Below, in pieces: positions 9,401-57,431 of a stretch of DNA of 64,000 bases (its first letter is position 1; the number at the start of each line of letters is the position of its first letter). The position numbers were made by a program, and so were the translations under genes. The notes below the pieces were generated by a model. That model saw only the letters and a program-made list of their open reading frames with translations. It did not search any database and was not told where the DNA came from. The DNA comes from a virus. Location: positions 352,001 to 416,000 of IMG/VR virus record IMGVR_UViG_3300028840_006907; one strand, written 5' to 3'.

Positions 9401-10318
9401 GGATCACAAGCAGGTATGGAAATTCGTGGTGGTAGTTCTGATGGAAGAGGTTTGTTGGTCCAAGGTGGTGGAAATAGTGAAGGTGCTCGGATTTTAGCTG
9501 GTGGCTCTTTCGATGCCGGTCTCCATATTATGGGCGGTGGGCATGGTTTACAAATTGAAGCTCAAGCCGGTAATTATAATGGTGTTAGAATTCAAGGAAA
9601 TGGGACTGCAAGTGGCCTATATGTTGCTGCTCAATTTGCTGGTTCTGGTAGTGGTGTGGAAATCAGAGGAGCTAGCAATACTGGTGGCCATGGTGTCAAT
9701 ATAACAGGTTTTGGAGGACAAGGGTTAATTGCTACAGGTGATTTGGGTGGTATGAATATAACATGTAGTGGATCAACAGGTGACGGTTTTTATGCTGAGG
9801 GTGGAGATCATGGCCACGGAATCCATGCTGTCGGTGGTGCTGGTGCTGCTCCTCCTCCAAGTGGCCACGGTATTCTGGCTGAAGCCGTCCACGGTGATTA
9901 TAATGGTATTTGTGCCATTGGTCATGATTCCAGTGCTGGTATCGCTGCTATTGGTGGATCTACTGGTCATGGTATTGAGGCAATCGGTGGAGATACAACA
10001 GGTGATGGTATTAATGCTTATGCTCAGACAGGTGACGGCGCTGGAATGCGCTTAAGAGGAGTTGGTACAGGCCATGATCTTGATGCTACTGAAGTCCTTG
10101 GTGGTGGAGGAGGAGGTACTCTAAATGCCTTAACTCTGGATACTGTAGTTGATGGCACCACATTAGAATATGCCTTTATGTTAATGATGGCACGAGTAAA
10201 TGGTAAATATCTTGTTAATGATCCAACGGGAGGAGATATAAGATTCTTCAGACGTGATAATACGACAGAATTAACTCGGGTTCATGTGGATACCGCAGGT
10301 AGAACAAGAACATTCTAA
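6401..10318 (+). CDS. Glycine-rich beta-solenoid-like repeat protein (1305 aa)
   Basis: Dozens of ~11-aa G-x-G-(I/L)-x-A-x-G-G-x-T/S repeats, e.g. GHGIDASGYDLGHGIYAKGGNTDGVGIFAKGG; AAGGAG SD 8 nt before the ATG. Confidence 0.8.
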   Translation: MPERVLRKFGVAASVDFTLFETDGINFKTDATHASGDTKIRKDTSAEVNTTNGFTDQTTSYAIAFTSAELSAKRIFVGIVDQGTKTWLDDYLMIETYGHPQAMHPFDLGADLTDYNETWKFKQIDIQNDSGSAFRAHSTGSSGHGIDASGYDLGHGIYAKGGNTDGVGIFAKGGETGHGFYGEGGADYGDGIHGEAVGIGTGSRKGIVGIGEGGNAGIYAEGGSTGHGFSCEGGTGGAGISCLGGTNGHGFLTSGTGTGEGIYAVGDIGIFAQGNGNPGHGMSLFGASNGHGLQISGSGSNFNGINVVSAVGVGIEVNAGTNQNAIEIYGNGTGNGVNIVGGGTSGSAMNLTATSGYAIDASGGGTFAAVHLQGGTGNPGLKVLGDGTGEGLYAEGGATANGIIAKAGSTSGTGLVCQSPTAGDGVAMYGKSTGKGLRITADQEAVAISAGTGIGINVIAGTQGISLTGLANEGLKILGATHGISTASFGTGHGIDASGGGANAAVLLTGGTGQAGLKLVGTGTVGLDTAEIGTPPAIFDGTASPSIYAMLTAMSDASGGSDFTASIDSLVAISSQVGGMSTDVNVVSIDGQATSGNNATLNLKQLNIVNNSGSAIVAHSTGSDGHGLDASGNNNGSGIYAYGGNNSSGSGIYANGGLQGTGFHIISSGDNALHIETSGSGSNGIYAKGFGSGHGVNFVGGASSGSIGLRASGETAGIYARGENSTSGDGIKAESVEHGHGINALGGEGGAPPSGDGIHAEARHGDHYGIYAGGFGSGSGMYSKGGLWGHGVEFRGGDNSGAGLLLAVDGTNSNGLSITGSDNSSGVYIEGGTSGHGVEIIGGSTSGSGIYTRALNNGMGIYAIGGNSAGDGINAQSPVAGNGISATGSLITGKGIVSTGGIAMQLVGLTGNALDMTTTTGHGIQIDAHGSGKSGMYIQSTSSYGMTVVGTTGVRFQGLSGPGIDVNAIGGNGLNIISTDNDGVHIEAGGSNPGFYSQGSGSQAGMEIRGGSSDGRGLLVQGGGNSEGARILAGGSFDAGLHIMGGGHGLQIEAQAGNYNGVRIQGNGTASGLYVAAQFAGSGSGVEIRGASNTGGHGVNITGFGGQGLIATGDLGGMNITCSGSTGDGFYAEGGDHGHGIHAVGGAGAAPPPSGHGILAEAVHGDYNGICAIGHDSSAGIAAIGGSTGHGIEAIGGDTTGDGINAYAQTGDGAGMRLRGVGTGHDLDATEVLGGGGGGTLNALTLDTVVDGTTLEYAFMLMMARVNGKYLVNDPTGGDIRFFRRDNTTELTRVHVDTAGRTRTF

Positions 10319-10322
10319 AATT

Positions 10323-10357
10323 ATGGGGTAAGGAAACTTGCCCCATATAACTGTTTT
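10323..10357 (+). terminator. Intrinsic terminator (10-bp stem, GAAA tetraloop)
   Basis: ATGGGGTAAG-GAAA-CTTGCCCCAT with one G-U pair, then a T5 run at 10353-10357. Confidence 0.5.
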
Positions 10358-10382
10358 TAACAAAGGCTTATTGGATTAGCTT

Positions 10383-12431
10383 ATGGCAGCATTTATGTTC
10401 AGACTTTGTGTACCTTACACACAAGTTCCAGGTGCAAATAAAACTAATTTCCCAGTACTTTTTAATGAGAGTATATCTGCAATTCCTGCCGGATTTTGGC
10501 CTAATATTTCTGATTCTTGTGCTTTAGATGTCCGGTTTTATTCAGATCCATTAAAAACTGTTGAATATAAAAGAACGATTGAAGAATATACTCCTTCAAC
10601 TTCTATTCGGGCATGGGTACAAGTTCCTACTTTATATGGGTCTGATAGTAGCACTAATAATAATATCTTTTGTGAAGTAGGTTCTGGTACTACAGCAAGT
10701 GATAATTCTATCTGGACAGATTTAGAAGCACAAAATATTCAGCATTTTGAAGATGATGTTTTAGATGATTCAACTAATGCAAATAATGGAACTTTAGTAA
10801 ATAGCCCTACTTATACTACAGGGAAACTTGGTAGAGCTTTAGAATTTGATAAAGATTCTACTCAATATGTAGTCTTAGATAATAATATCATGTTTAATGA
10901 TGATATTGTTGCGGAAGCTTGGGTTTATTTAAATTCTTATCCAGTCCATGTCCCAAATCCTAATTTTGAATATGCCACAATTGCCTCAAGAGGTACATAT
11001 TGCGTTAATTGGTATAGGGGTAGATCTCAATTTATCTTTGCAATAGATTCAACTGGACATCCATTTTTTCAATTAAATTATTCTACAGGATGTACTGCAG
11101 GATCTCGAACTAATTCTTATACTTCAGATGCAATAGTCCCTTTATCAACATGGACTCATGTAGCGGTTGTCTCTCAAGATAATACTTCGTTTTCAAGACA
11201 AGTAGATTTTTATGTTAATGGAGAAAAAAGAACTGATGCATCAAATGTTTTAATAGCTTTGACTTTTGATACTGTTACTAATCATCAAACACAAATTGGT
11301 GCAACATTTGAAGAGTGGGGTGGAGGAGGTCCTAGCCAAAGATGGCCTTTTGATGGTCGTATTGATGAATTGAGGATATATAGACAGAATCCATTGTTAT
11401 TTGATGATGGATGGATGCAAGCCACTTATAATTCTCAAAATGATCCTGATACTTTTTTTACTTGTGGTACTACACCCTTTTATGTTTTCTCAGATAGAAT
11501 TGCACAAGATGGTTTTAATCCTCCTGCTGATTCTACTTGGTTAGCTACATTTGGTGAATGGAATATCGGGGAGGAACCTCCATATATAATTACAGATCCT
11601 CGATATTGGGTTGCTCTATCGGATTCCACATGGAATGATACCGCTAATTGGTCGTATTTTTCTGGAGGTCCAGGAGGAGCACCAGTTCCTATTTCCAATA
11701 ATACTGTTGTATTTGATAATGGTGGAATAGGTAGATGTGATATAGATACTTCGGTTGATGTAAATGGATTTTATTGTTCAGGTTATGGAAACACTATCAG
11801 TCAAAATGGTTTTCCCATTTCAGTGGATTCATGTGGGGCTCTGTTTTGGTCTGGAGTTTTTGAAGGTAGTGGAGATGATATTAGGATAGCAGGAAATCTT
11901 TATATAGGAGGAGCTGCTAATTTTACCAGTACTGACCAAACTCTTTCTTGCGACTCTACATTTACTTATTATCCTACTGCATTTTTCGAACATAATAGTG
12001 GTATTATATCTCTTGATAATAGTGGTTGTATGATCGAAGCTCCTAGTATGAGAGCATCTACTTTACAATTTAATGCGGACCAAGCCCGTGTCAGTCAGAG
12101 CATGGATGTGAACGATCTATTGGTTTTAAATAGTGGAAGTGCCCGTCATCTTGGTGTGGGTGCCTCTATTAATTTAAAAGGAGATGCATCTTGTAGATCT
12201 GGTTATAATCAGTGGAATAATTTTAATAATTTAACGATATATTTAGATGGGACAGAACAACAGCAAATTAAAAATGAAATAGGTTGTATAGTTCCAACAC
12301 TTTATGTAAATAAAAATGTCACTGAACAAGTTGTATGTGATGGTGGTAGCCCTTTGAGAGTAAAAGGGGATTTTTGGGTTCTTGATGGGACCTTTAATAT
12401 GAATGGATTAAATGTACAAGTAGGGCTTTAA
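10383..12431 (+). CDS. DUF2341-like + LamG-like fibre/adhesin protein (682 aa)
   Basis: N-terminus MAAFMFRLCV...NFPVLFNES...DVRFYSD...VEYKRTIEE...WVQVPTL paralogous to 4009 and 12801; LamG motif FDGRIDELRIYRQ. Confidence 0.8.
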   Translation: MAAFMFRLCVPYTQVPGANKTNFPVLFNESISAIPAGFWPNISDSCALDVRFYSDPLKTVEYKRTIEEYTPSTSIRAWVQVPTLYGSDSSTNNNIFCEVGSGTTASDNSIWTDLEAQNIQHFEDDVLDDSTNANNGTLVNSPTYTTGKLGRALEFDKDSTQYVVLDNNIMFNDDIVAEAWVYLNSYPVHVPNPNFEYATIASRGTYCVNWYRGRSQFIFAIDSTGHPFFQLNYSTGCTAGSRTNSYTSDAIVPLSTWTHVAVVSQDNTSFSRQVDFYVNGEKRTDASNVLIALTFDTVTNHQTQIGATFEEWGGGGPSQRWPFDGRIDELRIYRQNPLLFDDGWMQATYNSQNDPDTFFTCGTTPFYVFSDRIAQDGFNPPADSTWLATFGEWNIGEEPPYIITDPRYWVALSDSTWNDTANWSYFSGGPGGAPVPISNNTVVFDNGGIGRCDIDTSVDVNGFYCSGYGNTISQNGFPISVDSCGALFWSGVFEGSGDDIRIAGNLYIGGAANFTSTDQTLSCDSTFTYYPTAFFEHNSGIISLDNSGCMIEAPSMRASTLQFNADQARVSQSMDVNDLLVLNSGSARHLGVGASINLKGDASCRSGYNQWNNFNNLTIYLDGTEQQQIKNEIGCIVPTLYVNKNVTEQVVCDGGSPLRVKGDFWVLDGTFNMNGLNVQVGL

Positions 12432-39651: not shown

Positions 39652-41940
39652 ATGGCTAGTACTTTAAGTAGTGGATTATTTACATTAAAAGAATTTTATA
39701 ATCGTGGTGTGATAAAATTAGCTCCTGATGTCCTTGTTTATATCGGAGGAAGTTTAACTACATCTGTCATTGCACCGGTAAGTGGGAAAGATGATACCGT
39801 TTCATTTAATGATGGAATTACTTCAGTTAATGTACAAAATAATATTGATCCTCCAGGAACTTCTACAGCTACCATTGAAATTACTACTCCTATTTATGGA
39901 GAAAAATCGAAATATTGGACCTATTTTAAAGGGATCGATAGTAATTCTCCAGTTCGGGCTCCTTTATTTGTTCCCATGATGGAAGTAAAGATTTATTATA
40001 AGGGTCGGTTTATGGTTAATGGAAGTCCAAAATATTATCCAGCTTTTTGGGGATTCATAACAAATGTGGAAGAAAATTATTCAGGAGGTGTGTATAAGAT
40101 CAACCTGACTTGTGCTGATACTCTTCATTGGTGGGGTTATAGTACTATTAATATTCACCCTATTTCTGAAGCTAATATTATGTCAGGTGGTAATTTAATA
40201 TTAACTGCTTTTTCCACTATTTTTAGAAGATTAAATCCTTATCAGATTTTGTATAAACTCACTACTGATATGGGAATGCATCAATTTGTAACCTCAGCTT
40301 GGGCCGGTCAGAAAACTCCTTTAAATAGCATTTATCCTACGGGTTTGTTTAGAAAAGTAACTCAGGGTATAATGGCGTATTGGCAACAGCGTTTTGCTAA
40401 TATGGGTAGTTTGCTAAAAATGTATGGAATAAATGGTAAACGTGTAGATCGGAATGGTGTTCAGGAAAGACAACCTGAAATCTATGTTCCGAAAAAACCC
40501 GGAAATTCTCTTCAACAAAAAGCTACTGAGCCTCAGGATAAAAGTCTTTTTAGTTTAGATAGAAATTATATTCGTCAATTTGAGATATTTGTTGATTATG
40601 ATGATATGGGTGGTTGGGATAATTCTGAATACATGACTAAACTTCAGATTGCTACTGAGGTAAAAACTAAAACTGATTTTGAATTTTATCAAGATGTCGA
40701 TGGCAATTTTATATTTAAACCACCTTTTTATAATTTAAATGTTAAAGGTGTCCTTCCTTATACTCTTCTTCCTAGTGATATAATAAATTATACCCATAGC
40801 ACTGATACTGAAGGTTTAATTACAGTGATGACTGTTAATACTCCTTTAGATAAAAATTTACGCACAACAACATATGCTCTTGGAAAAGGTTTCCATATGG
40901 ATATTGATTTAGCAAAAAGATTCGGTATTCGACATCAGGAAATGACCATGGAATATATAAATAATCAGGCTTTGGCAAGAACTCTTGCATTGGGAGAGAT
41001 GAATAAAATTAATTCCAAAGCGACAACAGGAAGTGTCACTATTCCTGGACGTCCTGAGATCCGATTAGGTTATCCTGTTTACATAGAGCATCGGGATAGT
41101 TTCCATTATGTCAGAGCTATTAATCATGCCTTTGAATATGGTGGAACTTTCACAACAACTTTATCTCTTGAGACTGAAAGAGTAAAGATATATGATCCTG
41201 ATGATAATTGGGAACCATATTTGGATAAAGTTTATTCTTATACTGGTAAAGCAGCTCCGAAAGATCCGAAAAAAGATCCTAATGTTGATACTCCTCCTAC
41301 TATAGCAGTGACACAAGATGTTGAAAAGAAGCAACAGGATTTAATGGTAGGTGAAAGAGTTTTACATTCTATGCAACAGGGTAAATATGCTCTTGTAGAT
41401 CGTCAAGGTGATAGTCAGTTATCTGCAACATCGACAACAGTACCTTATACTGATGAATTCGGTTATAGAGTAGTTGGTTCTTTTCCTTATGGTCGGGCAT
41501 TAAATCCAGTAAGTGTTGTTACGAATACAGATGATTTACCTTATTTAAAAGAAACTTATTTAACTACAATGGCAAGACCTGTTCATGAGTATGAGTCTGA
41601 AAGTATGAATATTCTGTTTTTTGACGATAAAGATGGTGCAGTTCCAAATTATTTAAATCTAGAAAATCGCCAATTACCTAGAATATTAGGTGCATTTAAA
41701 GATACTGATTTAGATAATGAATATGATCTCGAAAGTACTGTTCAGACAGAATCGCAAAGAAGAAGAAATAAAGGTGATGATAGTAAAAAAGAATTAACAA
41801 ATGATAAAATAATTGATATTACATCTGCGAGACCTCCAAAATCCGATGTTCCTCCTGGAGAGAGTAAAAAGATATTATCGGATTTACGTGATGACAGTGT
41901 GCCTGAAGCTAGAACATTGAGTGGGATCGGAGGATTTTAA
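39652..41940 (+). CDS. Putative baseplate hub protein (762 aa)
   Basis: Positional call after TMP and before the spike; C-terminus GIGGF; start coupled to the previous stop. Confidence 0.5.
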   Translation: MASTLSSGLFTLKEFYNRGVIKLAPDVLVYIGGSLTTSVIAPVSGKDDTVSFNDGITSVNVQNNIDPPGTSTATIEITTPIYGEKSKYWTYFKGIDSNSPVRAPLFVPMMEVKIYYKGRFMVNGSPKYYPAFWGFITNVEENYSGGVYKINLTCADTLHWWGYSTINIHPISEANIMSGGNLILTAFSTIFRRLNPYQILYKLTTDMGMHQFVTSAWAGQKTPLNSIYPTGLFRKVTQGIMAYWQQRFANMGSLLKMYGINGKRVDRNGVQERQPEIYVPKKPGNSLQQKATEPQDKSLFSLDRNYIRQFEIFVDYDDMGGWDNSEYMTKLQIATEVKTKTDFEFYQDVDGNFIFKPPFYNLNVKGVLPYTLLPSDIINYTHSTDTEGLITVMTVNTPLDKNLRTTTYALGKGFHMDIDLAKRFGIRHQEMTMEYINNQALARTLALGEMNKINSKATTGSVTIPGRPEIRLGYPVYIEHRDSFHYVRAINHAFEYGGTFTTTLSLETERVKIYDPDDNWEPYLDKVYSYTGKAAPKDPKKDPNVDTPPTIAVTQDVEKKQQDLMVGERVLHSMQQGKYALVDRQGDSQLSATSTTVPYTDEFGYRVVGSFPYGRALNPVSVVTNTDDLPYLKETYLTTMARPVHEYESESMNILFFDDKDGAVPNYLNLENRQLPRILGAFKDTDLDNEYDLESTVQTESQRRRNKGDDSKKELTNDKIIDITSARPPKSDVPPGESKKILSDLRDDSVPEARTLSGIGGF

Positions 41941-43872
41941 ATGAGGAATAGATATTATGCTCCTGGCGAAAAACCTCATAGTTCTTTCATAGATAGAAAT
42001 AATCAATATTTTTATGTTAGAACGGGTGTTATTGAAGAAATCGATCTTGATAAATATACAATGACTGTTAGATGGGAACCAGGTAATGGTAGTAGAGACC
42101 ATGTCCCAATAAGTTTTCCTTACGCAGGTCCGGCAGGATTTATTGGGATGTTGCCAGAAAAAGGATCATTCGGAATTTTTGGATGGTATAATTCTGGAGT
42201 GGGTGGTGGAAGTCCTCTATTATTAAGTTATCTTCCAGCAGGTCTTGATGCAGGATTAAATTATAATGTTGTTAAGATACATCCTGATGCTATTCCTACG
42301 AGTGATGTAAATGAGATTTTATTTAAATTCAGAAAATTGGGATTAAATGATTTGGTCATAGCTTCCCCATCGGGAGCTGAAATTACTTTAAATGCTAATT
42401 TAGAATTACGTGATGGTTCTCAAGATACTTTTTTAATCCGTGATGAAGATCAATCAATTATTGCTACTTCTCTAAATAATTTCATTTTTGCTGATGGTGT
42501 AGCGGTAAGTGCTGGTCCCGCAATGAGAAATAGCCTTGTACTCTATGATAAAAATGGAAAAAAGATAAGAAATAACGGTAGTCTCGTATCTCTTCCGGAT
42601 GGAAAAGAAAACATTTATATAGTTCCTAATGGTGAAGATATCACTTATGATACTCAATACTATTCTGAATATCGGGTTGATGTAGATGAATTGGTTGATG
42701 GAAAATTAGATCTTAATGACATTAATAGTTCTTCTCCATTATCAACAAGAGATCCTCTTATAACTTTAGCAATGGGTAATTACATAGGAGCTGATCGAAC
42801 TAATCCTCAACAGTATGGAGAAATATTAAAAGCAGTCCTTTTTTCTTCTCCAAATGATATAAAGGGAAACTTCGGTTTAGAAAAGGCGATACGAGATAAT
42901 GCCATGGATGAACCTTCTATTATAGGTCTCGCTTATGCTTTACATTCTTTGAAATCAGGGTGTTTTATTGGAATCGATAAAGAAGGCCATTATTATATGA
43001 ATCTCCCAGCATCGAAAACAAATCCTTTAGGTGCCGGAAGATCGATGTCTACCCTGGCTCAAGGTAATTTAAAAGAGATATGGGGAGGAGAAGCTTTAAT
43101 AAATAACTCTTGGGATTTGGCTACAGCGGGTGGAGTTCGTTGGAATATTGGTGCTCATAACACTAATTTAAGAGGTCGAAGTATTGATATAAAGACTTCT
43201 CAAGGTATAAATGTCGAAATAAATGGGAATGATGATGACGGTTATGCCAGAAAAGAGAAGATCAAAGGGAATACATATGAGAATGTTGGGGGCAACAAAA
43301 CTGAAGTTAGTTCGAATTTAACTCTTGTTATAAATGGGTTGAAGACTGAGAATATAGGTGGTTCTCATACTCAATCTATACAGAGTGACAAAAGTGTTAA
43401 TGTGTTGGGAGTTTATTCAGAAACAGTTTCGAAAGAGAAGCAACAAAAATATGGGAGTAGAAAGACTGTCATAACTCCTCAAGGTAATGATGAATTGGAA
43501 GTTAATGCAGGTGATATCCAACACACAATAACTACATTCGGTCAAAAGAAATTGTCTGTAAACGGTGGGAATATTCAACAAAACATTGGAAATGGAGTTT
43601 ATGAGACTCTTATAAAATTAGGAAGTTATACTCTTGATGTAAAGACAGGATCGATAGAAATAAAAACTGCACTAGGTACTGTAACAGTTTCGGGAACTTC
43701 AGTAGAGATAAAGGGTTCAGTTTCTGTAAGTGTTGATGCTCCAGTAGTAAAATTAGGACAAAATGCACCTATAGGAGGAGTTGTAACAGGTCTTCCTGGA
43801 ATACCTTCTCATGCGGATTATGTGACAGGTGCTCCTCTAAAAGGAAGTTTAAAAGTAAGTGCAACGGCTTAA
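41941..43872 (+). CDS. Central spike protein (gp5/VgrG-like) with C-terminal beta-helix repeats
   Basis: C-terminal short V/I-x-V/I-x-G-N repeats (GNTYENVGGNKTEVSSNLTLVINGLKTENIGGSHTQSIQSDKSVNVLGVYSETVS...); position after hub. Confidence 0.5.
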   Translation: MRNRYYAPGEKPHSSFIDRNNQYFYVRTGVIEEIDLDKYTMTVRWEPGNGSRDHVPISFPYAGPAGFIGMLPEKGSFGIFGWYNSGVGGGSPLLLSYLPAGLDAGLNYNVVKIHPDAIPTSDVNEILFKFRKLGLNDLVIASPSGAEITLNANLELRDGSQDTFLIRDEDQSIIATSLNNFIFADGVAVSAGPAMRNSLVLYDKNGKKIRNNGSLVSLPDGKENIYIVPNGEDITYDTQYYSEYRVDVDELVDGKLDLNDINSSSPLSTRDPLITLAMGNYIGADRTNPQQYGEILKAVLFSSPNDIKGNFGLEKAIRDNAMDEPSIIGLAYALHSLKSGCFIGIDKEGHYYMNLPASKTNPLGAGRSMSTLAQGNLKEIWGGEALINNSWDLATAGGVRWNIGAHNTNLRGRSIDIKTSQGINVEINGNDDDGYARKEKIKGNTYENVGGNKTEVSSNLTLVINGLKTENIGGSHTQSIQSDKSVNVLGVYSETVSKEKQQKYGSRKTVITPQGNDELEVNAGDIQHTITTFGQKKLSVNGGNIQQNIGNGVYETLIKLGSYTLDVKTGSIEIKTALGTVTVSGTSVEIKGSVSVSVDAPVVKLGQNAPIGGVVTGLPGIPSHADYVTGAPLKGSLKVSATA

Positions 43873-43882
43873 GGATCAATAA

Positions 43883-44491
43883 ATGCCATTAGTACCACAA
43901 ACAATGAAAAGTTTTATAATAGTCAAGGCGTCATCCTTAACTATAGCAGGGGATAAATTATCTTATTTTGTCTCAGCTATTGCTAGTGCTACTTGTCAAT
44001 ATATTCTTTCAGCTTCAACTGTAAATAGTACTAATATTGCACTAGGGCCAGGAGGTGGAACACAGACGGGGAAAGTGGTAGGATTAGTCCCTTCTGGTAT
44101 GAGTGCACTAATGATGGCACGAGCAACCGCTAATGGGCTTTCTGGAAGAGATTTAAAGAAAGTTTTTGATTCTATTTCTTTTGGGGTGGTGAATGCTATG
44201 AAGGCTGTTGTACTTCAAGGAACAATCATAGGAGCTGGTCCTGGGACTGGGACAGGGAAAATTATAGGTTTAGTTCCTTCTGCTCTTCAGAATTTAATAT
44301 ATGCTCAATCTGCTTTTAGATTGATTTCAGGAGATAAATTAAGGCCAATATTATCAGCTATAGCTTTTGGTATATGTAATCATATAATGTCGGCGGGTAC
44401 AGTAAATGCAACTGACATAGGAGCTGCAGCCGGACCACCTGCAGGCCCAGTAACGATACCTGCTGCACCAGGAATAGGGAAACTTGTATAA
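43883..44491 (+). CDS. Gly-rich protein with three internal ~60-aa repeats (possible spike tip or baseplate component)
   Basis: Repeats GDKLSYFVSAIASATCQYILSASTVNSTNIALGPGGG... / GRDLKKVFDSISFGVVNAMKAVVLQGTIIGAGPGTG... / GDKLRPILSAIAFGICNHIMSAGTVNATDIGAAAGPPAG... Confidence 0.6.
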   Translation: MPLVPQTMKSFIIVKASSLTIAGDKLSYFVSAIASATCQYILSASTVNSTNIALGPGGGTQTGKVVGLVPSGMSALMMARATANGLSGRDLKKVFDSISFGVVNAMKAVVLQGTIIGAGPGTGTGKIIGLVPSALQNLIYAQSAFRLISGDKLRPILSAIAFGICNHIMSAGTVNATDIGAAAGPPAGPVTIPAAPGIGKLV

Positions 44492-47400
44492 ATGAGTACT
44501 GATTTAAATACACTGTTATCGTATAATACGATAGATCTTGAATTTTTTGAAATACGTGGATCAAGATCGGGAGTCAATAATGCTCGTACAACAGGTGTTG
44601 TTTATGTAAACGGGCAATATGTTCCAGGAAAGAGTGATGTCACAGGAAGTGGGACTTTTGCTAGTGATGATACTGTTAGTGGATTTTCATTTGGAGCACC
44701 CTATGGTGCTTTAACTACTTCTTCATTAAAAGTGGGAGATAATCTTACTGCTGACTCCACTATTTTTAGAATAGCAAATATCGATTCTTCTACCAGTTTT
44801 CAACTTGAAAGTGCTTCGGGTCTGACAGGGGTTTATCCTATACAATTTGATATGGGTCAAAGAGAATATGTTGTAGAGCCAGATACAATAACAAATACTT
44901 CGACCGGTACAGCTAGCTTTACTTCTGGAGATAAGACTGTAATAAATACAGGTCCTTCTTGGTCAGGGATAATAGCCCCAGGTGATTTTATAAAACATGA
45001 TGGATATCAAGAATATTTTAGAATAGCTGCGGTACCTTCTGGGACATCATTAACATTAGAGAATTCTTATTCAGGTGATACTACGAGTGGTTCCTATACT
45101 GCTAAGAAATGGGTTATAGGTAGAACCAGAATTCAGTATGCTAAAAATGATATAACTTATGATGATCAGGCAGCGAAGTGGAAATATGGGGCTATAGAGG
45201 CTGATGATCTTACTACTTCTACGAATTTTACTCCTCTAGTAGATGGAGTTACATTAAAATTTTCTCGTGCCTTAAATACTAATGATCCAGATTTAATGGA
45301 TGTGGCTGTTACAGAGAATACCATTTTTGCCAGAGAGACTAAATATGAAACGTTTCAGTTTGCTCTTCCTGTAGTTCCTTTTCCTGAATCTTCTATGAAA
45401 CTTTGGATTAATAGTGTCGAACAAACGATGTATCAAGATTATGTATTATCCTATTCTCAGAATCCTTTATATGTTTTACCTCCTCCTCCAAATGAGCGTT
45501 TTGTGGCTAATATAATGTTTTTAACAGAATTATCAAACAGCCCAAGTACAGAATTAACAGCATTAGGAGAGTTCAATATTACTGATTCTTCTGGTAATTC
45601 GATAGGAGGAATATATCCGGGATCTTTTTCATTGACTGTTGATGGTACTACTCAGGTTCCTTATAGAGATTATGTATTGGAAGGGAATTCTGGGACTATC
45701 AATATTATAGATTCAACTGTAAATGAAGAGATAGTAAAATATGTAGGTTCTGATTATAGTGATTATATCGATTATGGTTTTAAAGTTTATTTAAATGGGA
45801 TAGAACAAAAAATTTCTTTTCCTGCTGAAATTGATGATGATATTCTTTTTCAGGTTGCTATAGGAAGGTTAAAACCTCGTGATAAGGACCATCCGGGACC
45901 TGGTGAAATTTATCAAATAAATTATATGGTTGAATCAAATCCTGTTTCTGATGAGCTTATTGTAGGAACTGATGGTGGAACTGTCATTGCTACGAGTTCT
46001 TATCCGATAAAGCAAGATTCTATTTTGTTAATAAAAAATGATACAATTCTTACAGAAGATGAGGATTATTTTGTTAGTTATTTAACTGGTAGAATTTCTC
46101 TTATAGACACTCTTACTTCCCAGGATAATTTTTCTATAAGCTATACTCCTCTTTCAAAACAGGTTAATAATTTATTTTATACAGATAACGCTTGGTATTG
46201 TACAGTAAATGATTCTAGGTTAACAATAGTAGATGCTGATAATTATAGATTTAGTTTAATAAATCTTAGCCTGGATGCTGGTGAGATCCAAATTAATCGC
46301 ATTTATAATGAGACAAGAGATGGGGATTATGATTTAACAAATATCCAGACAGAGGGACCGACTCTTTTATTGGAGAAAAATGCTACTAATACTTCTATAG
46401 GATTAAAATCAACTGATGTTGTACTAATTGATTATACTTTTGAAAGTGAATCAACGGAATATTATCCGGTTGTTGTAAATAATTTAAATATAACTGAAGG
46501 GGTAAAAACTGTTTATATAGAAGGGTCTGACCTGACTTCATTTATAGATGCAAGTTCGATTCTCACTCTTGCTAGACCTGATTCTGCTGTGCAATATTAT
46601 CATACCATTTTAAGTTCTTCTTATGATAATTACGGTACAAGAATAAATATTGAAACACCTATTTTTGAAGATATAATAAACCCAAAAATGTTTATAGGTG
46701 ATAGTGCTCCTACTTATTTAAGTGTTCCTTTAACGGCTGGTCCTATTATAAGTGGTTCTACCAATATTTCTTTTTTTGGTGATAATATTCAAAATATTTT
46801 TCGAAGTAAAACAATTCTTGATGTAAGTAATGATTTATATCAAGTAGCAAGTGCTTCGTATGATAGTGATACTACCACAACCACGGTTAATCTGAGATCA
46901 GGAATATTATATGATCGAACAGACTCTACAGATTTATCAAGTTTAAAATATAGTGATAACCCATATTATCTTGAAGGTGATACAGAGATTTATGCTTCAG
47001 AAACGATAGCGACTTTATCTGATCAACCAGGTTTCATAATGAATTATAATAGTGATCAGATAATAGAAATTACAACTACTGAATCTGATTTGACTGTTGA
47101 TGGAACCTCTTTCTCATATAATACTTATCCGACTTTAAGTGATCTTTCAGGTGCTATGACGGTTATTCCGTCGTTGGCTGTTACTACATATATCCCAGCG
47201 TGGCAGAGTAGTAAAATTGAACTAGTGACTGAATTGTCTGTTTTCAGGGACTCAAGTACTGTATTAAATGTCTCAAATGCTTTAAGATATAAAAGTATTG
47301 ATGCTACTGCTTTTGTTGATACTACGGATTATTCAATAAGTAATAGAGGTACAGTTATTTTAGATAACCCTCTTGTAAGAGGAGATAAATATAATCTTGA

Positions 47401-49834
47401 TTACATGGGTTTGGAATTTCTTGGTAATAAACAAGTCAGTTATACTGCAGGTTATTTTGATTCATTACCTGCAAAATCAGAAGTAAAGGCTTCCTTTCAA
47501 TTTGTTAATTTAGATCAATTTTATATCCAGGTTTTAGATCAGAGAGATTTCTTTAGTTCAGTGACTATTCCTCGAATGAGGGAAGAAGCGATTCAACTTA
47601 GTGGTAGTGTAGGTCAAGGTGGTGAAGTTATTGGTGATGAAGGTAACGATAATGCTTCTGGAGGAATCACTGGTGATGAATATGCTCGACAGGACATGGA
47701 AATAGAATGTCGTGTATTCCAGAATATCTATGATTTTTTCAGTAATCGATTAGAGGCTTATGGCGATGAAATGGAGGCATCTGTAGGTCTGAAATTATTT
47801 AATAATGATGGTATATTTACACAGCAAGAACAGGATGCTGCGAATAAAACTGTCAGTAGAATTTTTCCAGATGTTGATAATACTAATTTTGAACCGATGG
47901 AAGTGAACCCATTAACAGGTTACTTTTTTGACAATGGTGCAAAATTTGTTAATGGTTCAACAACTGTGACTAGTACAGGTAATACTCTTTGGACATTACA
48001 ATTAAATAATTCGGGTTATATTGGTAGCGCAGATTCAACGAAAAGATATCAAATAAATAGTATCACTAATAATGCTGAACTTGAATTGACTACCTCTTAT
48101 GGAGAAAATTCCTCTAATGTTAATGATGGCGAACGCTATACTGCAGTAAATACTGATTACCCAGTTTATGATGATGACGGTTTTGTAGGGGCAAGAATAA
48201 TAGGGACAAGAGCGAGTAATTTTGGTTTAATAAATGGAGACACATTTGAAATATTTCTTGATGGGACGGATTTAACTCATAAGAAGACATATACTTTTTT
48301 AGATACTTTTTTTCCAGTAGCCAATTTAAATGGACCATTGGTAGCAGGATTATTATCAACAATTAATGGTTTAAGTTGTACATACGAGTCGGTTCTTGAT
48401 CCTACTACAACTTATGGTTATCGTTCCACTTTAGTTTTTAGGACAGATTCAACTGTTAATTATATGAAACTTGGTGATACCACTACGACAACTAAATTAG
48501 GATTTGTAAGAGATGATACTGTTTATGGGAATTATGATAGATTAAATTATAGCTCATCTGCTATTTCACTTAATTTAGTCCCTCCTGAAGCAATTTTAGA
48601 TTCGAGTGAAGCGCATGCCATCGGTGAAGAATTAGGTTATCAGAGTTCATTAATTGCTTTAGGAAGTCCTGATAAGTTAAATCGAATAAGTCCAGCAGGT
48701 CTTATTTTTGCAAGTGAGATTTATAATTCTGCCTCATCTCAGGTAGATCTAATTTATCAAGAGATTCCGAAAATAGAAGAACAAATCACTGCTACAGGTC
48801 TTATTATTGCAGAGGAAGATATTCCTTCTGCTGATACTTCCACAGCTCATTTAAATGCAACTTTAATGTTGGCTGATACCAGTGCTGCATTAATCGATGC
48901 TACAGGAATTATTACCGATTGGCAAGGGAAAGGAACCGATTGGGAATGGGTTTCAGATTTTACACAACATAGTGTATTTATTCGTGGTAAAGACAGTACC
49001 AATGTTGGTGTTCCGGTTTCATCCGGACCTGGCATTACAAATATTGATGGTCAGCAATCTTTTATTCTTCAGGCACCTGCTGGATATGATCGAAGAATAT
49101 TGAATAATACAATTTTTTCTGTTACGTATTATCCTGCAATAGTAGATGCTACAAGTAATATCCCTTTTGATGGGACATGGACAGGATGGGGCATTTACGG
49201 TTATAGTAATAACAATGAAATTACATTTACTTTAGATCAACCTAATATGATCTTTCTTAATAACGTTTCAATGGCTGGGACTAATCAGAGATATATTACT
49301 GATAGTACAGCTTTGAATATTTTGTGGGATGTAGGACCAAGTACGACAACAGTAACATTTCCGTATGCAACTTATGCAACGGTCTCTAGTATGAAAATTG
49401 CTTTAAATACTATTTCAGGATTAAGTGCTACTGGACCTGCAATACATGATGCAAGTATTTGTAAAGCATTTTTAATATTGCCTCCTCAATCAATCACTCC
49501 TGATGCCACGGTTTATCCAGGATTGAGAGATGCTACAGTAGCATATCAGACAATTTCTGATATGATGCTTGCAGACAGAACTAATTTTGCCAGTGATCGA
49601 AGTAATTTTCTTGTAAACAGAATAGATTATTTAACAAATACTAGAAATACACAGATAAAAAATGCTATAAAAAATGAACAACTTTTACTCGATAATGGAG
49701 AACCCAGTGATCTTTATAATTGGGCAAATAACAGATTTAATAGGAGACAAGGGTGTTACGCAAAACTCAAACAAATAGAGCAACAAATAGCTTCAAACGA
49801 GTCAGCTCTTCAAATAAACAAGAGTTTCTTTTAA
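44492..49834 (+). CDS. Giant baseplate/fibre structural protein (1780 aa)
   Basis: Long ORF starting 1 nt after the previous stop; beta-rich, S/T/N-rich; no diagnostic motif. Confidence 0.75.
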   Translation: MSTDLNTLLSYNTIDLEFFEIRGSRSGVNNARTTGVVYVNGQYVPGKSDVTGSGTFASDDTVSGFSFGAPYGALTTSSLKVGDNLTADSTIFRIANIDSSTSFQLESASGLTGVYPIQFDMGQREYVVEPDTITNTSTGTASFTSGDKTVINTGPSWSGIIAPGDFIKHDGYQEYFRIAAVPSGTSLTLENSYSGDTTSGSYTAKKWVIGRTRIQYAKNDITYDDQAAKWKYGAIEADDLTTSTNFTPLVDGVTLKFSRALNTNDPDLMDVAVTENTIFARETKYETFQFALPVVPFPESSMKLWINSVEQTMYQDYVLSYSQNPLYVLPPPPNERFVANIMFLTELSNSPSTELTALGEFNITDSSGNSIGGIYPGSFSLTVDGTTQVPYRDYVLEGNSGTINIIDSTVNEEIVKYVGSDYSDYIDYGFKVYLNGIEQKISFPAEIDDDILFQVAIGRLKPRDKDHPGPGEIYQINYMVESNPVSDELIVGTDGGTVIATSSYPIKQDSILLIKNDTILTEDEDYFVSYLTGRISLIDTLTSQDNFSISYTPLSKQVNNLFYTDNAWYCTVNDSRLTIVDADNYRFSLINLSLDAGEIQINRIYNETRDGDYDLTNIQTEGPTLLLEKNATNTSIGLKSTDVVLIDYTFESESTEYYPVVVNNLNITEGVKTVYIEGSDLTSFIDASSILTLARPDSAVQYYHTILSSSYDNYGTRINIETPIFEDIINPKMFIGDSAPTYLSVPLTAGPIISGSTNISFFGDNIQNIFRSKTILDVSNDLYQVASASYDSDTTTTTVNLRSGILYDRTDSTDLSSLKYSDNPYYLEGDTEIYASETIATLSDQPGFIMNYNSDQIIEITTTESDLTVDGTSFSYNTYPTLSDLSGAMTVIPSLAVTTYIPAWQSSKIELVTELSVFRDSSTVLNVSNALRYKSIDATAFVDTTDYSISNRGTVILDNPLVRGDKYNLDYMGLEFLGNKQVSYTAGYFDSLPAKSEVKASFQFVNLDQFYIQVLDQRDFFSSVTIPRMREEAIQLSGSVGQGGEVIGDEGNDNASGGITGDEYARQDMEIECRVFQNIYDFFSNRLEAYGDEMEASVGLKLFNNDGIFTQQEQDAANKTVSRIFPDVDNTNFEPMEVNPLTGYFFDNGAKFVNGSTTVTSTGNTLWTLQLNNSGYIGSADSTKRYQINSITNNAELELTTSYGENSSNVNDGERYTAVNTDYPVYDDDGFVGARIIGTRASNFGLINGDTFEIFLDGTDLTHKKTYTFLDTFFPVANLNGPLVAGLLSTINGLSCTYESVLDPTTTYGYRSTLVFRTDSTVNYMKLGDTTTTTKLGFVRDDTVYGNYDRLNYSSSAISLNLVPPEAILDSSEAHAIGEELGYQSSLIALGSPDKLNRISPAGLIFASEIYNSASSQVDLIYQEIPKIEEQITATGLIIAEEDIPSADTSTAHLNATLMLADTSAALIDATGIITDWQGKGTDWEWVSDFTQHSVFIRGKDSTNVGVPVSSGPGITNIDGQQSFILQAPAGYDRRILNNTIFSVTYYPAIVDATSNIPFDGTWTGWGIYGYSNNNEITFTLDQPNMIFLNNVSMAGTNQRYITDSTALNILWDVGPSTTTVTFPYATYATVSSMKIALNTISGLSATGPAIHDASICKAFLILPPQSITPDATVYPGLRDATVAYQTISDMMLADRTNFASDRSNFLVNRIDYLTNTRNTQIKNAIKNEQLLLDNGEPSDLYNWANNRFNRRQGCYAKLKQIEQQIASNESALQINKSFF

Positions 49835-54257: not shown

Positions 54258-57200
54258 ATGGCAATACCAGCTCCAGAAATACTTCTTCCTACAGGTGGGA
54301 TGGATTATGCAACAGATATAGCCACACAGACTTTATCTGGTACAACTTCTGCTGATACTCAAGAGATCCAGATAAATGGGTCAGTTCATGGTGTATCATA
54401 TACTGCAGGAGAAACTATTTGGTCCTGGACAGGTACTTTGACTTTAGGTAGTAATGTAATCAATATAATAGCAATTGAGAAAGTCACAAGTTTGCCTAGT
54501 CCTGCTACTACGATTACTATAACATTAATTCCACCTGAAGATGAGGTGATTACGGTTAGTTCTCCTACTGGAGTACAGACATTACGTTATCAAGATAAAA
54601 TCGAAATAAAGAATGTTCAGAATCCTGAACCCAATACAATAGGGTATAATTACTATGTTAGTACACAAAGTGGTGGGATAGATGGAGTTTATGCGAAAAT
54701 CAATACTGATTACATAACTGAATATACTTCATACGAAGATAAAGCAACTCTCATAAATACAGTTACTGATACAACTGGTAATATACGTGTGACAGTTACA
54801 ACTGAACAAATAACCAGAGAATATTATTATTCGGTCTTTTTTGATCAGGAACGTTATACTGAATTAGTAGAAGCTGAACTATTACCAGCAGTATCTTTTA
54901 ATCAGAATACTCCATTCTTTTTTGTTGTTACAGCTATAATATATGATCCAGTTCTTGGACAGGTAACTGAAAGTGCCAATTCGATTGAACTTCAGAGTTC
55001 TCCTGTTACTATTACGACAGGAATAAGAACACTCCCTGCTAGAACTCAGAATGATATTATCCTTACTTTTAGTCAAGATCTTTTATTATCAAATACTGGG
55101 ACTGATACAAAGCCAGGTACAGTGGTAAGAGATATGATGGATCCCATCTCGGAGGAGATGGCTAGAGTTTATGTAATTCAGGATTTTCTCGCTCGATCTC
55201 TATCAGTTAGTTCATTATTGGATTTTGATGATGCTGATGGAGATGGTGAGAGTGATGCAGTAGAGGATTCCATTCCGAAAAAAGCTTTACAACTTGCTCT
55301 TATGCTTACTGATCCTGACGATGTCCAGGCAGTTATTGATGCTCAATTTGATAAACTGGCTTCTAATGCTGATACAACAAGAAGATCTGCAACATATGCA
55401 GTGGGAGAGGTTACATTTTTTGTCACCGAAGCTCCTATAAGGGATATGGTAGTAAATGAGGGTGCTATAGTTTCTACTTTAGGTGATTTGGATAGTGGTA
55501 TCCAGGCACAATCTTATAGAACATTAGCTACAAAGATATTAGATTATGAAACTCGTGAAAGATTTTATAATTCGACAACAGGACGCTATGAGATGAGTCT
55601 TGATGTTGAGGCATTAAATGTAGGTGAAGAAGGGAATACAGATTCTTATACAGTTAAAGTAGTTTCTTCAGGGGCCGATTCAAATTTTCAGGTAGAAAAT
55701 CCTAATCCTATAAGTTTTGGTGAAGATATAGAATCAAATTATAATTTAGCCACTAGGATAATGTTGGCATTTTTTGCTGATACCGGTACTGAGGGAGGTT
55801 ATGCTAAAATAGCTGCCAGTGTCTCTGGTGTAAGAAGAACTCGTATCGAAAAAGCCGGTGATCCACTAATGATCAGAGACTATGATCCTATAAGAGAAAA
55901 ACATGTTGGTGGAAAGGTGGATGTTTATATCCAAGGATCAAGATCGAGACAAGTAACTGATCAGATAGCTTTTTCATTTGAAAGTATAGTATCGAGCCAA
56001 GGGGCTCAATCGGAAGAACAATTCCTTGTGATAAATGCAGTGGCCTTTCAGTTTAAGACCACGAATCCCCGGGTAACATCACATACCCCCATCTTTGAAG
56101 TAAGTCGAGTATATAATGCAACGAGAGCACAGGAATATGATATTTCTGGATACCAAATCATAGGTGATGGTAATACTGTTGATCTTGATGAAACTAAAGC
56201 TCAGAATGCTGCTATAGGTTTAGCTGCTACAGATGTAATAAAAGTCGATTACAAATTTAGGAGTTCGGATACTTTTGTTCTACAGAATCAACCTGTAAAT
56301 GATATTGTCTCTATTGTGGGTCAATTATCTGGTACATTAACTTCTGATAACTGGGATTTAGTTACACTTGAAGATCCTTTGGCAGAAGGCCGGTCTACAA
56401 TAGCACAAGATAGTGTGAGAATAAAATTTGCAAATAATTTACCTCTTACAGGTTTTCAAACAATTACTGATGAGGTTCATGTAATGATTTTGGGTAAAAA
56501 TGAACCTCTTGATTTTTTAGGGGCTGACCCTACTTCTATTGTAGTTAAAAATTTGGCTAAGACTGTTACTTATGTATTAAATGTGGATTACAGAATCGAT
56601 CCTGGTACTGATACTGAGGCTACTGAAATTATTATGATAGAATCAGGTAGTATCAGTAATGGAGAGCAGGTTTTAATAAATTATGTAGCAATTGAAAATT
56701 TTATTATAACTTATACAACGAATGAGTTATTAGAAACTGTTCAAGATGAATTGGATGAATATAAGCATGCCTGTGCTGATGCCATAGCAAAACAGGCCAT
56801 AGAAAATGGTGTTGATTTTGCTTTTACTGTGGTACCGAAATCTAATGTGGTAGATTTTAACACATTGACTTCTCAGATTACAACCTCGATAGCAAATTTT
56901 ATAAGTCAATTGGATATAGGTGTCTCACTTACTCAAAGTGATGTGGATAATCAAATAAGAAAAGTTGATGATGTAGATTATGTTGTCCTTCCGTTTACTC
57001 GTATGGTAAAATCTGATGGCTCTCAGATTGTACGAGATGATATAGGTCAAGTACAATTTGAAGTATATAATGATGGTGTTACAAGATCTTATATAACTTC
57101 AGCAACGGTCCTTTCTTATAATACTATTGATAAGGGTGGTGATGAGAATAAATTTAGAGGAGTATTTGAGAACACAGTTGCACTTATTTTACAGGATGAT

Positions 57201-57431
57201 CCTCTTGATGTTTCGGGAGGTGCAGGACGTGCCTATATCCAGAGTGATGGAAAAATAATCGTAAGTACTATTGATGGTCAGTTACCTGATACGAAAAATT
57301 ATGAAGTAGCATATTATGTGGAAGGGGAAACTGGTTCTGAAGATATTAATGTAGCAGCAGTTGAGTCTTTAAAAATTGGGACTCTAACAATTGCTTATGA
57401 TACACCACGAGAACAACTTCCTTCGTTATAA
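54258..57431 (+). CDS. Large baseplate/fibre structural protein (1057 aa)
   Basis: ORF track; position immediately before the propeller-containing fibre. Confidence 0.7.
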   Translation: MAIPAPEILLPTGGMDYATDIATQTLSGTTSADTQEIQINGSVHGVSYTAGETIWSWTGTLTLGSNVINIIAIEKVTSLPSPATTITITLIPPEDEVITVSSPTGVQTLRYQDKIEIKNVQNPEPNTIGYNYYVSTQSGGIDGVYAKINTDYITEYTSYEDKATLINTVTDTTGNIRVTVTTEQITREYYYSVFFDQERYTELVEAELLPAVSFNQNTPFFFVVTAIIYDPVLGQVTESANSIELQSSPVTITTGIRTLPARTQNDIILTFSQDLLLSNTGTDTKPGTVVRDMMDPISEEMARVYVIQDFLARSLSVSSLLDFDDADGDGESDAVEDSIPKKALQLALMLTDPDDVQAVIDAQFDKLASNADTTRRSATYAVGEVTFFVTEAPIRDMVVNEGAIVSTLGDLDSGIQAQSYRTLATKILDYETRERFYNSTTGRYEMSLDVEALNVGEEGNTDSYTVKVVSSGADSNFQVENPNPISFGEDIESNYNLATRIMLAFFADTGTEGGYAKIAASVSGVRRTRIEKAGDPLMIRDYDPIREKHVGGKVDVYIQGSRSRQVTDQIAFSFESIVSSQGAQSEEQFLVINAVAFQFKTTNPRVTSHTPIFEVSRVYNATRAQEYDISGYQIIGDGNTVDLDETKAQNAAIGLAATDVIKVDYKFRSSDTFVLQNQPVNDIVSIVGQLSGTLTSDNWDLVTLEDPLAEGRSTIAQDSVRIKFANNLPLTGFQTITDEVHVMILGKNEPLDFLGADPTSIVVKNLAKTVTYVLNVDYRIDPGTDTEATEIIMIESGSISNGEQVLINYVAIENFIITYTTNELLETVQDELDEYKHACADAIAKQAIENGVDFAFTVVPKSNVVDFNTLTSQITTSIANFISQLDIGVSLTQSDVDNQIRKVDDVDYVVLPFTRMVKSDGSQIVRDDIGQVQFEVYNDGVTRSYITSATVLSYNTIDKGGDENKFRGVFENTVALILQDDPLDVSGGAGRAYIQSDGKIIVSTIDGQLPDTKNYEVAYYVEGETGSEDINVAAVESLKIGTLTIAYDTPREQLPSL

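Follow-up and report, generated by a model that had tools for sequence, protein, structure and literature searches.

Organization of the locus

The window analysed here is a stretch of 64,000 nt (positions 352,001-416,000 of the IMG/VR virus record IMGVR_UViG_3300028840_006907), which covers 64 kb of a huge uncultivated phage genome of about 390-470 kb. In its tail module, a probable baseplate hub gene, a spike gene, a gene for a 202-aa triple-repeat protein and a gene for a giant protein follow one another (Table 1). The initial annotation had singled out the reading frames of 643 and 202 aa, and both are indeed present on the plus strand, with a spacing of 10 nt. The hub candidate gave weak matches only, to PHROG 400 and PHROG 52 'tail protein' (E = 6e-4 and 4.5e-3), and no match among PDB sequences; its synteny is kept in L028 and in the IMG/VR loci that reach the hub gene. 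The 1780-aa protein matched PHROG 1980 'tail fiber protein' (E = 8e-4) and is a conserved downstream neighbour; in L023 and L028 an insertion lies between it and the triple-repeat gene. A scan of 38.0-50.2 kb for promoters and terminators returned counts equal to the shuffle expectation.

Table 1 Features of the hub, spike and triple-repeat locus, in window coordinates
Feature	Position	Strand	Remarks
762-aa probable baseplate hub, gp27-like position	39652..41940	+	Directly upstream of spike; assigned by position
643-aa central spike	41941..43872	+	OB-fold-like N-terminus, unassigned middle region, predicted beta-helix, conserved C-terminal tail
Spike N-terminal OB-fold-like region, about aa 26-98	42016..42234	+	
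Spike beta-helix repeats, about aa 437-602	43249..43746	+	Pfam, PHROG and PDB alignments; G-initiated 8-9-residue units
Spike conserved C-terminal tail, aa 603-643	43747..43869	+	...GGVVTGLPGIPSHADYVTGAPLKGSLKVSATA; without HxH
AAGGA, Shine-Dalgarno-like	43871..43875	+	Overlaps spike stop; 7 nt 5' of the 202-aa gene ATG; sequence GCTTAAGGATCAATAAATG
202-aa triple-repeat protein, candidate spike tip/cap	43883..44491	+	
Repeat 1, aa 1-68	43883..44086	+	Helices 5-18, 26-44; strands 46-55, 57-66; near-invariant N-terminal Met-Pro
Repeat 2, aa 69-130	44087..44272	+	Helices 70-83, 89-106; strands 110-116, 121-128; invariant G-x-G-P-G-x-G turn
Repeat 3, aa 131-202	44273..44488	+	Helices 132-145, 153-171; strands 173-182, 190-201; Pro-rich turn PPAGP
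1780-aa protein, probably baseplate or fibre	44492..49834	+	ATG abuts the 202-aa gene stop

The spike protein and its C-terminal tail

The 643-aa reading frame is probably the central spike protein, as judged from sequence matches below threshold and from a fold search whose input model was poor. Residues 437-490 match Pfam Gp5_trimer_C (E = 0.0025, under the curated cut-off) and residues 438-597 match PHROG 430 'baseplate hub subunit and tail lysozyme' (E = 4e-4), while gp5 beta-helix chains make up seven of the eight best matches of a family profile among PDB sequences (E = 0.04-0.19), aligning at profile positions 425-515. These sub-threshold matches and the G-initiated units are in line with the earlier reading that the protein ends in beta-helix repeats. 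An 8-residue periodicity is seen by eye in the window spike and is weak by autocorrelation; it is far clearer in the distant homologue L025:1208-3439. No family match to a lysozyme domain was found in the spike in Pfam, NCBIfam or PDB sequences.

The tail that follows the beta-helix is conserved among 32 spike homologues, with G630 invariant, P632 and V639 present in 31 each, D626 in 30 and H624 in 25, and with CxC, CxD, DxD and TxD as the variants at positions 624/626. Its motif is retained in the distant homologues L025 and L028. HxH does not occur within the last 60 residues of any of the 32 homologues, where HxD or a variant stands instead, and published work has taken a spike without a C-terminal HxH as the marker of a separate tip protein. 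Whereas the gp5 proteins of T4 and RB43 end bluntly, the window spike has a conserved tail of about 40 residues with an H/C/D-x-D/C dyad and TGxPL. This arrangement resembles the fused apex of P2 gpV, in which a ligand-type dyad is likewise followed by TGxPL (SHADYVTGAPL in the window spike, HTHKHPGDSGGTTGSPL in gpV), but the apex motif of gpV is HTHKH...TTGSPL and that of the window tail is HxD...TGxPL, with HxD or a variant as the dyad, a shorter spacing and about 11 more conserved residues after it. Moreover, the HxH that defines the fused apex of P2 gpV, phi92 gp138 and the R-type pyocin spike is absent from all 32 homologues. Because the tail resembles the gpV apex, the spike may already be pointed, and by this comparison it could bear a metal-stabilised point of its own, which would give no platform for a tip. 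A PAAR-like motif hidden in the tail was also considered and rejected, as four tails compared with Pfam at E <= 10 returned nothing relevant.

Repeats and predicted fold of the 202-aa protein

The threefold internal repeat noticed initially, with units of about 62-68 aa, is confirmed: segments 1-68, 69-130 and 131-202 gave pairwise local scores of 70, 113 and 83 (z = 9.6, 19.0 and 12.4), and none of 1000 shuffles (mean about 25, sd 4.6) reached the observed scores. The composition agrees with the description of the protein as rich in Gly, Ala and Ile, since its 202 residues include 27 A, 26 G, 20 I and 19 S, and Glu is absent. Structure prediction of the protein alone, which had been proposed as a check, yielded a confident compact globular AF2 body (pLDDT 86.9, pTM 0.81) with six helices and three adjacent-strand pairs. 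The model found no structural match among the solved chains of the PDB library searched. Over the wider family, invariant or nearly invariant positions are limited to Met1 and glycines; C165 and H167 in repeat 3 are conserved in the near clade only, and a metal site formed by C38, C165 and H167 was rejected because its conservation goes no further than that clade.

Coevolution was analysed by DCA on 282 triple-repeat sequences (Neff 238), with a column shuffle as the null. The predicted antiparallel contacts between helix A and helix B inside the repeats were recovered. Between repeats 1 and 3, 15 couplings exceeded the 99.9% quantile of the null, where about 5 are expected, and only one of them lay above the strictest null. 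Five of the 15 have exactly the same offset, 127, and all but one of these join equivalent positions (22/149, 29/156, 33/160 and 37/164); strand couplings 61-178, 61-174 and 62-176 are also present, and equivalent-position couplings occur across repeats 1-2, 2-3 and 1-3. Such covariation is expected of a closed pseudo-C3 body or of a protein that binds a C3 partner symmetrically, and it favours the closed pseudo-threefold arrangement. The repeats and couplings together point to a monomer with local threefold symmetry.

The family is hydrophobic, with a mean GRAVY of +0.64 and, in some members, about 5 charged residues in 198, and one homologue has been labelled automatically by JGI as an 'uncharacterized membrane protein'. 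With its hydrophobic character and near lack of charge, the 202-aa protein may act on a membrane or lie in the hub lumen. It might be a membrane-active protein on or in the puncturing device that inserts into the host membrane and helps to form or dock the DNA conduit, a reading that overlaps partly with that of a spike tip and that we regard as distinctly unlikely for the window protein: its 19-residue hydropathy maximum is 1.54, under 1.6, the first helix of each repeat is amphipathic and only 14 residues long, polar Gly-rich strands account for one third of the chain, and the AF2 body is compact and globular. On the question raised initially, whether the protein would prove to be a membrane protein, the evidence is divided. 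The hydropathy maximum and the globular model speak against it in the window protein, where a classical multi-pass membrane protein is unsupported, but 24 of 41 family members do have a 19-residue window of at least 1.6.

Conservation and synteny of the family

The 202-aa protein belongs to a large family of about 195-210 aa found in metagenomes only, on contigs of up to 590 kb, and its length is nearly invariant over 158 clusters. Searches for relatives in cultured phages by blastn and tblastn, with three family members and the window protein against 50,697 phage records, found none, and a local control indicated that the low-complexity filter does not mask true homologues. A third homologue search with a wide profile returned no further named proteins. 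Nine of the 41 members match phrog_5576, a 65-position profile with function not annotated, across one repeat. Short 'single-repeat' matches in the representative search were fragments, and the long matches P0298 and P0368 were spurious repeat proteins.

Among IMG/VR loci that were sampled via the spike and extend past its stop codon, the triple-repeat gene comes next in all 41, usually after a gap of 0-60 nt, even where the spikes are 30-35% identical. Distant members (about 25-34% identity) retain the order hub, spike, (insert), triple repeat and giant protein. In most loci no other gene of the tail-tip module is as well conserved as the triple-repeat gene (60% vs 43-48% in L004; 74% vs 53-61% in L014), and in contractile injection systems tip proteins are reported to rank with the best-conserved components (PMC12407873).

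Tight operon coupling with both neighbours would also suit a non-virion assembly factor or chaperone, which would help the spike beta-helix, or the 1780-aa protein, to fold or trimerise. Trimeric beta-helical phage proteins often require dedicated chaperones. However, the beta-helix of the P2 spike folds without a helper or an apex, and a chaperone would be unusual in being so highly conserved, so constant in length and almost free of charge. Furthermore, neither gene pairing is absolute, because adjacency is broken downstream in L023 and L028 and on the spike side in L025 and L022. We consider such a role very improbable.

In LR745208, a 485-kb uncultured phage, a distantly related spike has a different tail and is followed by an amidase-like gene, and there is no triple-repeat gene. 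This single case (n = 1) lends weak support to co-occurrence.

Comparison with PAAR proteins and other spike tips

The known spike tips are almost all PAAR proteins or fused HxH apex domains. That no PAAR motif is visible at this locus, as was remarked initially, holds after a search with the PAAR-type Pfam families PAAR_motif, DUF4280 and DUF4150: the 202-aa protein had no Pfam match at E <= 0.1, 41 family members had no PAAR-type match at E <= 0.05, and none was found in the other reading frames of at least 80 aa on the plus coding strand of the window, including the tail module at 28-62 kb. The intergenic space in the tail module is insufficient for a PAAR gene, but one may lie in the part of the genome beyond the 64 kb covered. 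The 202-aa protein resembles PAAR proteins (PF05488; T4 gp5.4; c1882 and VCA0105 of T6SS) in being a small single chain with three internal repeats and local threefold symmetry, in having three strand pairs where PAAR has three beta-hairpins, and in being very highly conserved and encoded beside the spike gene. In PAAR proteins, a threefold internal repeat likewise fits a monomer onto a trimer (PMC12407873). The two differ in that PAAR is an all-beta conical fold of three intertwined beta-hairpins, whereas the 202-aa protein is predicted to be alpha/beta, and in that the tetrahedral His3Cys metal site at the hairpin tips has no counterpart here beyond the near-clade residues H167 and C165.

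The sole proposed exception to PAAR and HxH tips that we found in the literature is RB43 orf205w, a still putative non-PAAR tip on a T4-like gp5 spike, whose gene lies right after that of the spike (PMC12407873). It is like the 202-aa protein in this gene position, in being non-PAAR, in having an N-terminal alpha/beta region (about 220 aa) and in being a proposed spike tip, but it is about 690 aa long, has a long all-helical C-terminal part and is without a triple repeat. Homology between the two was rejected (hhalign probability 0.3%).

A further parallel is phiKZ, in which the spike gp164 bears the monomeric tip gp163.1 and is encircled by a 'pin' ring of gp174. There, too, as is proposed here, the puncturing device of a jumbo phage combines a hub and a trimeric beta-helical spike with a tip that is a separate monomer, and the adjacent numbers of gp163.1 and gp164 suggest neighbouring genes, as in the window; the 202-aa model differs in matching no solved chain of the library. 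The pin ring shows that a spike complex can hold such a component besides its tip, and the 202-aa protein might be a structural protein of the hub and spike complex placed off the tip, either as an axis plug in the hub lumen near the C-terminus of the tape-measure protein or as a multi-copy collar or 'pin'. The genetic coupling to hub and spike would then be identical, the low charge would be in keeping with complete burial, and the apex-like C-terminus of the spike points the same way. We nonetheless think this placement unlikely.

Proposed role and significance

The initial annotation had proposed that a protein with a threefold repeat could sit as a monomer on the trimeric spike axis. The repeats, the couplings, the pairing with the spike in 41 of 41 loci, the conservation, the lack of HxH and the lack of a PAAR gene in the tail module all speak for this idea, but the apex-like HxD...TGxPL tail and the hydrophobicity speak against it. 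The idea is partly supported, and for one 202-aa copy on the spike axis as a non-PAAR tip or cap we put the chances at about even. Presence in the virion, one copy per spike trimer and binding at the tip are all things that we infer. In the mechanism we propose, the 202-aa protein would be a virion part of the cell-puncturing device of the tail. Its three diverged helix-helix-two-strand units would pack, within one chain, into a compact and locally threefold-symmetric body. This body would sit on the trimeric spike axis, most likely capping the membrane-attacking C-terminal end and taking the role of PAAR with an unrelated alpha/beta fold. We also speculate, as a quite improbable extension, that it represents a class of pseudo-trimeric, almost uncharged alpha/beta tips that leave the spike once the outer membrane has been penetrated, insert themselves into the cytoplasmic membrane and there seed or dock a channel for DNA and the tape-measure protein.

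In a contractile tail it is the spike tip that first meets the host membrane. If the 202-aa protein is such a tip, the principle of seating a locally threefold-symmetric monomer on a trimer would have evolved more than once, and a large clade of huge phages would share, as a fixed component, a tip fold new to solved structures. A conserved 'hypothetical' gene on hundreds of metagenomic phage contigs would also gain an annotation handle. [quoted passage not shown]

Tail module and its surroundings

The window holds a single long array of phage genes on the plus strand, with a GC content of about 35%. Metagenomic contigs that encode a protein 100% identical to the 202-aa triple-repeat protein include one of 388,651 bp (JGI sample 3300017963) and reach 469,617 bp. 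Relatives of this protein occur on contigs as long as 590 kb, and the source is therefore a huge phage that has not been cultivated. The contractile-tail module extends from a sheath-like ORF through Baseplate_J to a BNR-repeat protein, which is likely a receptor-binding component. Within it, a 1102-aa tape-measure-like ORF is followed by ORFs of 255, 280, 762, 643, 202, and 1780 aa, the 762-aa ORF being the probable hub.

Directly 5' of Baseplate_J, in the expected place of a gp25/gpW-like sheath initiator, is a 240-aa ORF without a significant match in Pfam or NCBIfam. A zinc-ribbon protein is encoded just 5' of the sheath gene, and an actin-fold gene also lies just 5' of the tail module in this huge-phage genome. 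The ThyX protein is about twice the usual length. The two Laminin_G_3 genes stand one on each side of a 1305-aa ORF, and neither this ORF nor the 2441-aa ORF after the second of them has a family match.

Features of the tail module and neighboring genes (window positions)
Feature	Position	Strand	Remarks
Laminin_G_3 (concanavalin-like) proteins	4009-6234; 10383-12431	+	
ORF, 2441 aa	12801-20126	+	
ThyX, 500 aa	21614-23116	+	Thy1, E 1.2e-58; two matched stretches
Actin-fold protein, 338 aa	25217-26233	+	full-length Pfam Volactin (PF25216), E 1.2e-63; MreB match weaker
Zinc-ribbon protein, 139 aa	27625-28044	+	N-terminal Zn_ribbon_8, E 1.4e-11
Sheath-like ORF, 933 aa	28157-30958	+	Phage_sheath_1C, E 8e-4, under curated cut-off
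Probable hub, 762 aa	39652-41940		
Putative central spike, 643 aa	41941-43872	+	
Conserved spike C-terminal tail, aa 603-643	43747-43869	+	ends ...GGVVTGLPGIPSHADYVTGAPLKGSLKVSATA
Triple-repeat protein, 202 aa	43883-44491	+	
Giant protein, 1780 aa	44492-49834		
ORF, 240 aa	53525-54247	+	
Baseplate_J protein	54258-57431	+	
BNR-repeat protein, 1358 aa	57444-61520	+	four BNR/YCF48-like beta-propeller stretches, PSII_BNR E 7e-27; adjoins Baseplate_J

The spike and its C-terminal end

The two ORFs in which the initial annotation had read a beta-helix spike and a triple-repeat protein are both present where it placed them. Several weak lines of sequence comparison agree that the 643-aa protein is the central spike: a sub-threshold Pfam Gp5_trimer_C match on residues 437-490 (E 0.0025), a match to PHROG 430 'baseplate hub subunit and tail lysozyme' (E 4e-4), precomputed Gp5_C or Gp5_trimer_C matches in two homologues, and a 32-homologue profile for which gp5 beta-helix chains were seven of the eight best PDB matches (E 0.04-0.19). 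The protein has no lysozyme domain and therefore is not a gp5 sensu stricto.

Among the 32 homologues, G630 of the C-terminal tail is invariant, and P632 and V639 (31/32 each), D626 (30/32), and H624 (25/32) are widely kept. Positions 624/626 mostly read HxD, with the variants CxC, CxD, DxD, and TxD, all typical metal ligands except Thr, and G630 and TGxPL follow. P2 gpV, which ends ...HTHKHPGDSGGTTGSPL, shares the ligand dyad followed by TGxPL, but its HxH apex motif is missing from the window spike and from the last 60 residues of all 32 homologues; RB43 gp5, in contrast, has a blunt end (...ITGGTVQVG) instead of a conserved tail. The tail may be a different metal-binding spike end. The spike may therefore possess its own apex-like, metal-stabilised constriction, and the 202-aa protein would then need to form a cap or sheath over it or be located elsewhere. 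With such a tail, the 202-aa protein could be at another on-axis site or a collar of the hub-spike complex, a reading that we consider unlikely. The tail motif is retained in distant spike homologues that retain the triple-repeat gene. In a single case, the remote 812-aa spike of a 485-kb uncultured phage (L031, LR745208.1; region 8812-12072), the tail is different (ending ...GSDLDPLTGIPFSTFMPPRGQKLSPI), and the next gene encodes a cell-wall amidase-like protein of 257 aa, the triple-repeat gene not being there.

Coupling of the triple-repeat gene to the spike

The spike stop and the start of the 202-aa gene are 10 nt apart, with AAGGA 5' of this start, and for the 202-aa gene the ATG of the 1780-aa ORF directly follows its stop. 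A word-indexed search gave 133 family matches, nearly all of 202 aa (identity 51-86%), and an exhaustive profile search gave 158 clusters at 50% identity, almost all of 186-211 aa, the others being fragments and two spurious repeat proteins. All family members are metagenomic and without annotation, and a set of 50,697 deposited phage genomes contains none of them. Across 23 IMG/VR loci sampled via the triple-repeat protein, the order 255-280-hub-spike-triple repeat-giant is conserved, and the triple-repeat gene mostly shows the strongest conservation (60% identity vs 43-48% for the others in locus L004, 63% vs 48-51% in L009, and 74% vs 53-61% in L014). Reverse sampling via the spike gave 43 loci, of which 41 run beyond the spike stop, and the family gene comes next in all 41, including those with spikes only 30-35% identical to that of the window; the arrangement also persists in distant members (about 25-34% identity). 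The adjacency is rarely interrupted, the largest insert seen being a 285-aa Lys/Asn-rich ORF without a family match in a distant relative (L025, 3858-4715), with a gap of about 0.5 kb in L022/L043; in L028, also distant, a 1.6-kb gap precedes the giant ORF. We regard the conservation of the 202-aa protein and its strict coupling to the spike as solid.

Fold of the triple-repeat protein

The threefold repeat proposed in the initial annotation is real: residues 1-68, 69-130, and 131-202 give pairwise local alignment scores of 70-113, whereas shuffled sequences average about 25 (sd 4.6), so that z = 9.6-19; not one of the 1000 shuffles scored as high. The Gly/Ala/Ile richness likewise holds, with Ser also abundant and Glu absent. 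In the AF2 model (36-sequence alignment; pLDDT 86.9, pTM 0.81), each repeat is predicted to consist of a helix of 14 residues, a loop that contains an invariant Gly, a second helix of 18-19 residues, and a pair of strands, whose Gly/Pro-rich turn holds most invariant residues. The predicted fold has no match among the solved chains of the PDB library searched, and the family profile found no PDB sequence at E <= 10; the window protein matched nothing in Pfam, PHROGs, or NCBIfam, and BFVD gave one weak match, an unnamed 207-aa viral protein. The 65-position profile phrog_5576 (function unknown) matches 9 of 41 family members, each over one repeat, which suggests that sequenced phages may have relatives with a single repeat, which could be homotrimers.

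Mean-field DCA on 282 non-identical sequences (Neff 238) recovered the predicted antiparallel helix-helix contacts within repeats (12-34, 9-31, 16-26, 74-96, 78-92, 140-157), so its signal is real. Above the 99.9% quantile of a column-shuffle null there are 78 pairs, of which 24 join repeats 1-2, 22 repeats 2-3, and 15 repeats 1-3, with about 5 false positives expected per class. Five pairs have an offset of exactly 127, and four of them (22/149, 29/156, 33/160, and 37/164) join corresponding sites in repeats 1 and 3, with three of the four on one face of the second helix. Six pairs have an offset of 65. The strands of repeats 1 and 3 are also coupled (61-178, 61-174, 62-176, 60-197). Such couplings would be expected of a closed pseudo-threefold body in which the three long helices pack around the axis, and equally of three repeats that each touch a C3 partner in a symmetric way. 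When the shuffle maximum is taken as the strictest null, a single pair between repeats 1 and 3 is left, and the result is supportive rather than decisive.

Prediction as a membrane protein, which the initial annotation had set against a tip role, received a divided answer. The window protein (GRAVY +0.61, 14 Lys+Arg, 5 Asp) has a maximum 19-residue hydropathy of 1.54, whereas 24 of 41 family members (mean GRAVY +0.64) have a 19-residue stretch of at least 1.6, and in some no more than about 5 of 198 residues are charged. These values would suit a delivered, membrane-active protein, a rather improbable reading that partly overlaps with a tip; alternatively, the protein may be buried completely. 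An ordinary integral membrane protein is disfavored by the short amphipathic first helices, the polar Gly-rich strands, and the confidence with which a compact body is predicted.

A candidate spike tip

According to the Leiman laboratory, C-terminal HxH spikes carry a fused iron-binding apex, whereas spikes without HxH are tipped by a separate protein, in most cases PAAR. Few proteins of contractile injection systems are as conserved as the tip, and RB43 orf205w, encoded right after gene 5, is a candidate non-PAAR tip (Leiman laboratory, PMC12407873). Profile comparison showed no relationship of orf205w to the triple-repeat family (hhalign probability 0.3%). PAAR is indeed not visible, with no PAAR-type domain in the other coding-strand ORFs of the window (80 aa or longer) and no intergenic room for such a gene in the tail module. 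The 202-aa protein resembles PAAR proteins in where its gene lies, in its symmetry logic, and in how well it is conserved, yet it fails all sequence and fold criteria for membership. An assembly factor is a very unlikely alternative. The most likely reading, with about an even chance of being right, is that a single pseudo-threefold polypeptide would be placed on the axis of the spike trimer, at or over its membrane-attacking end; if so, the spike would carry a tip that is not PAAR and whose fold is unseen among solved structures.
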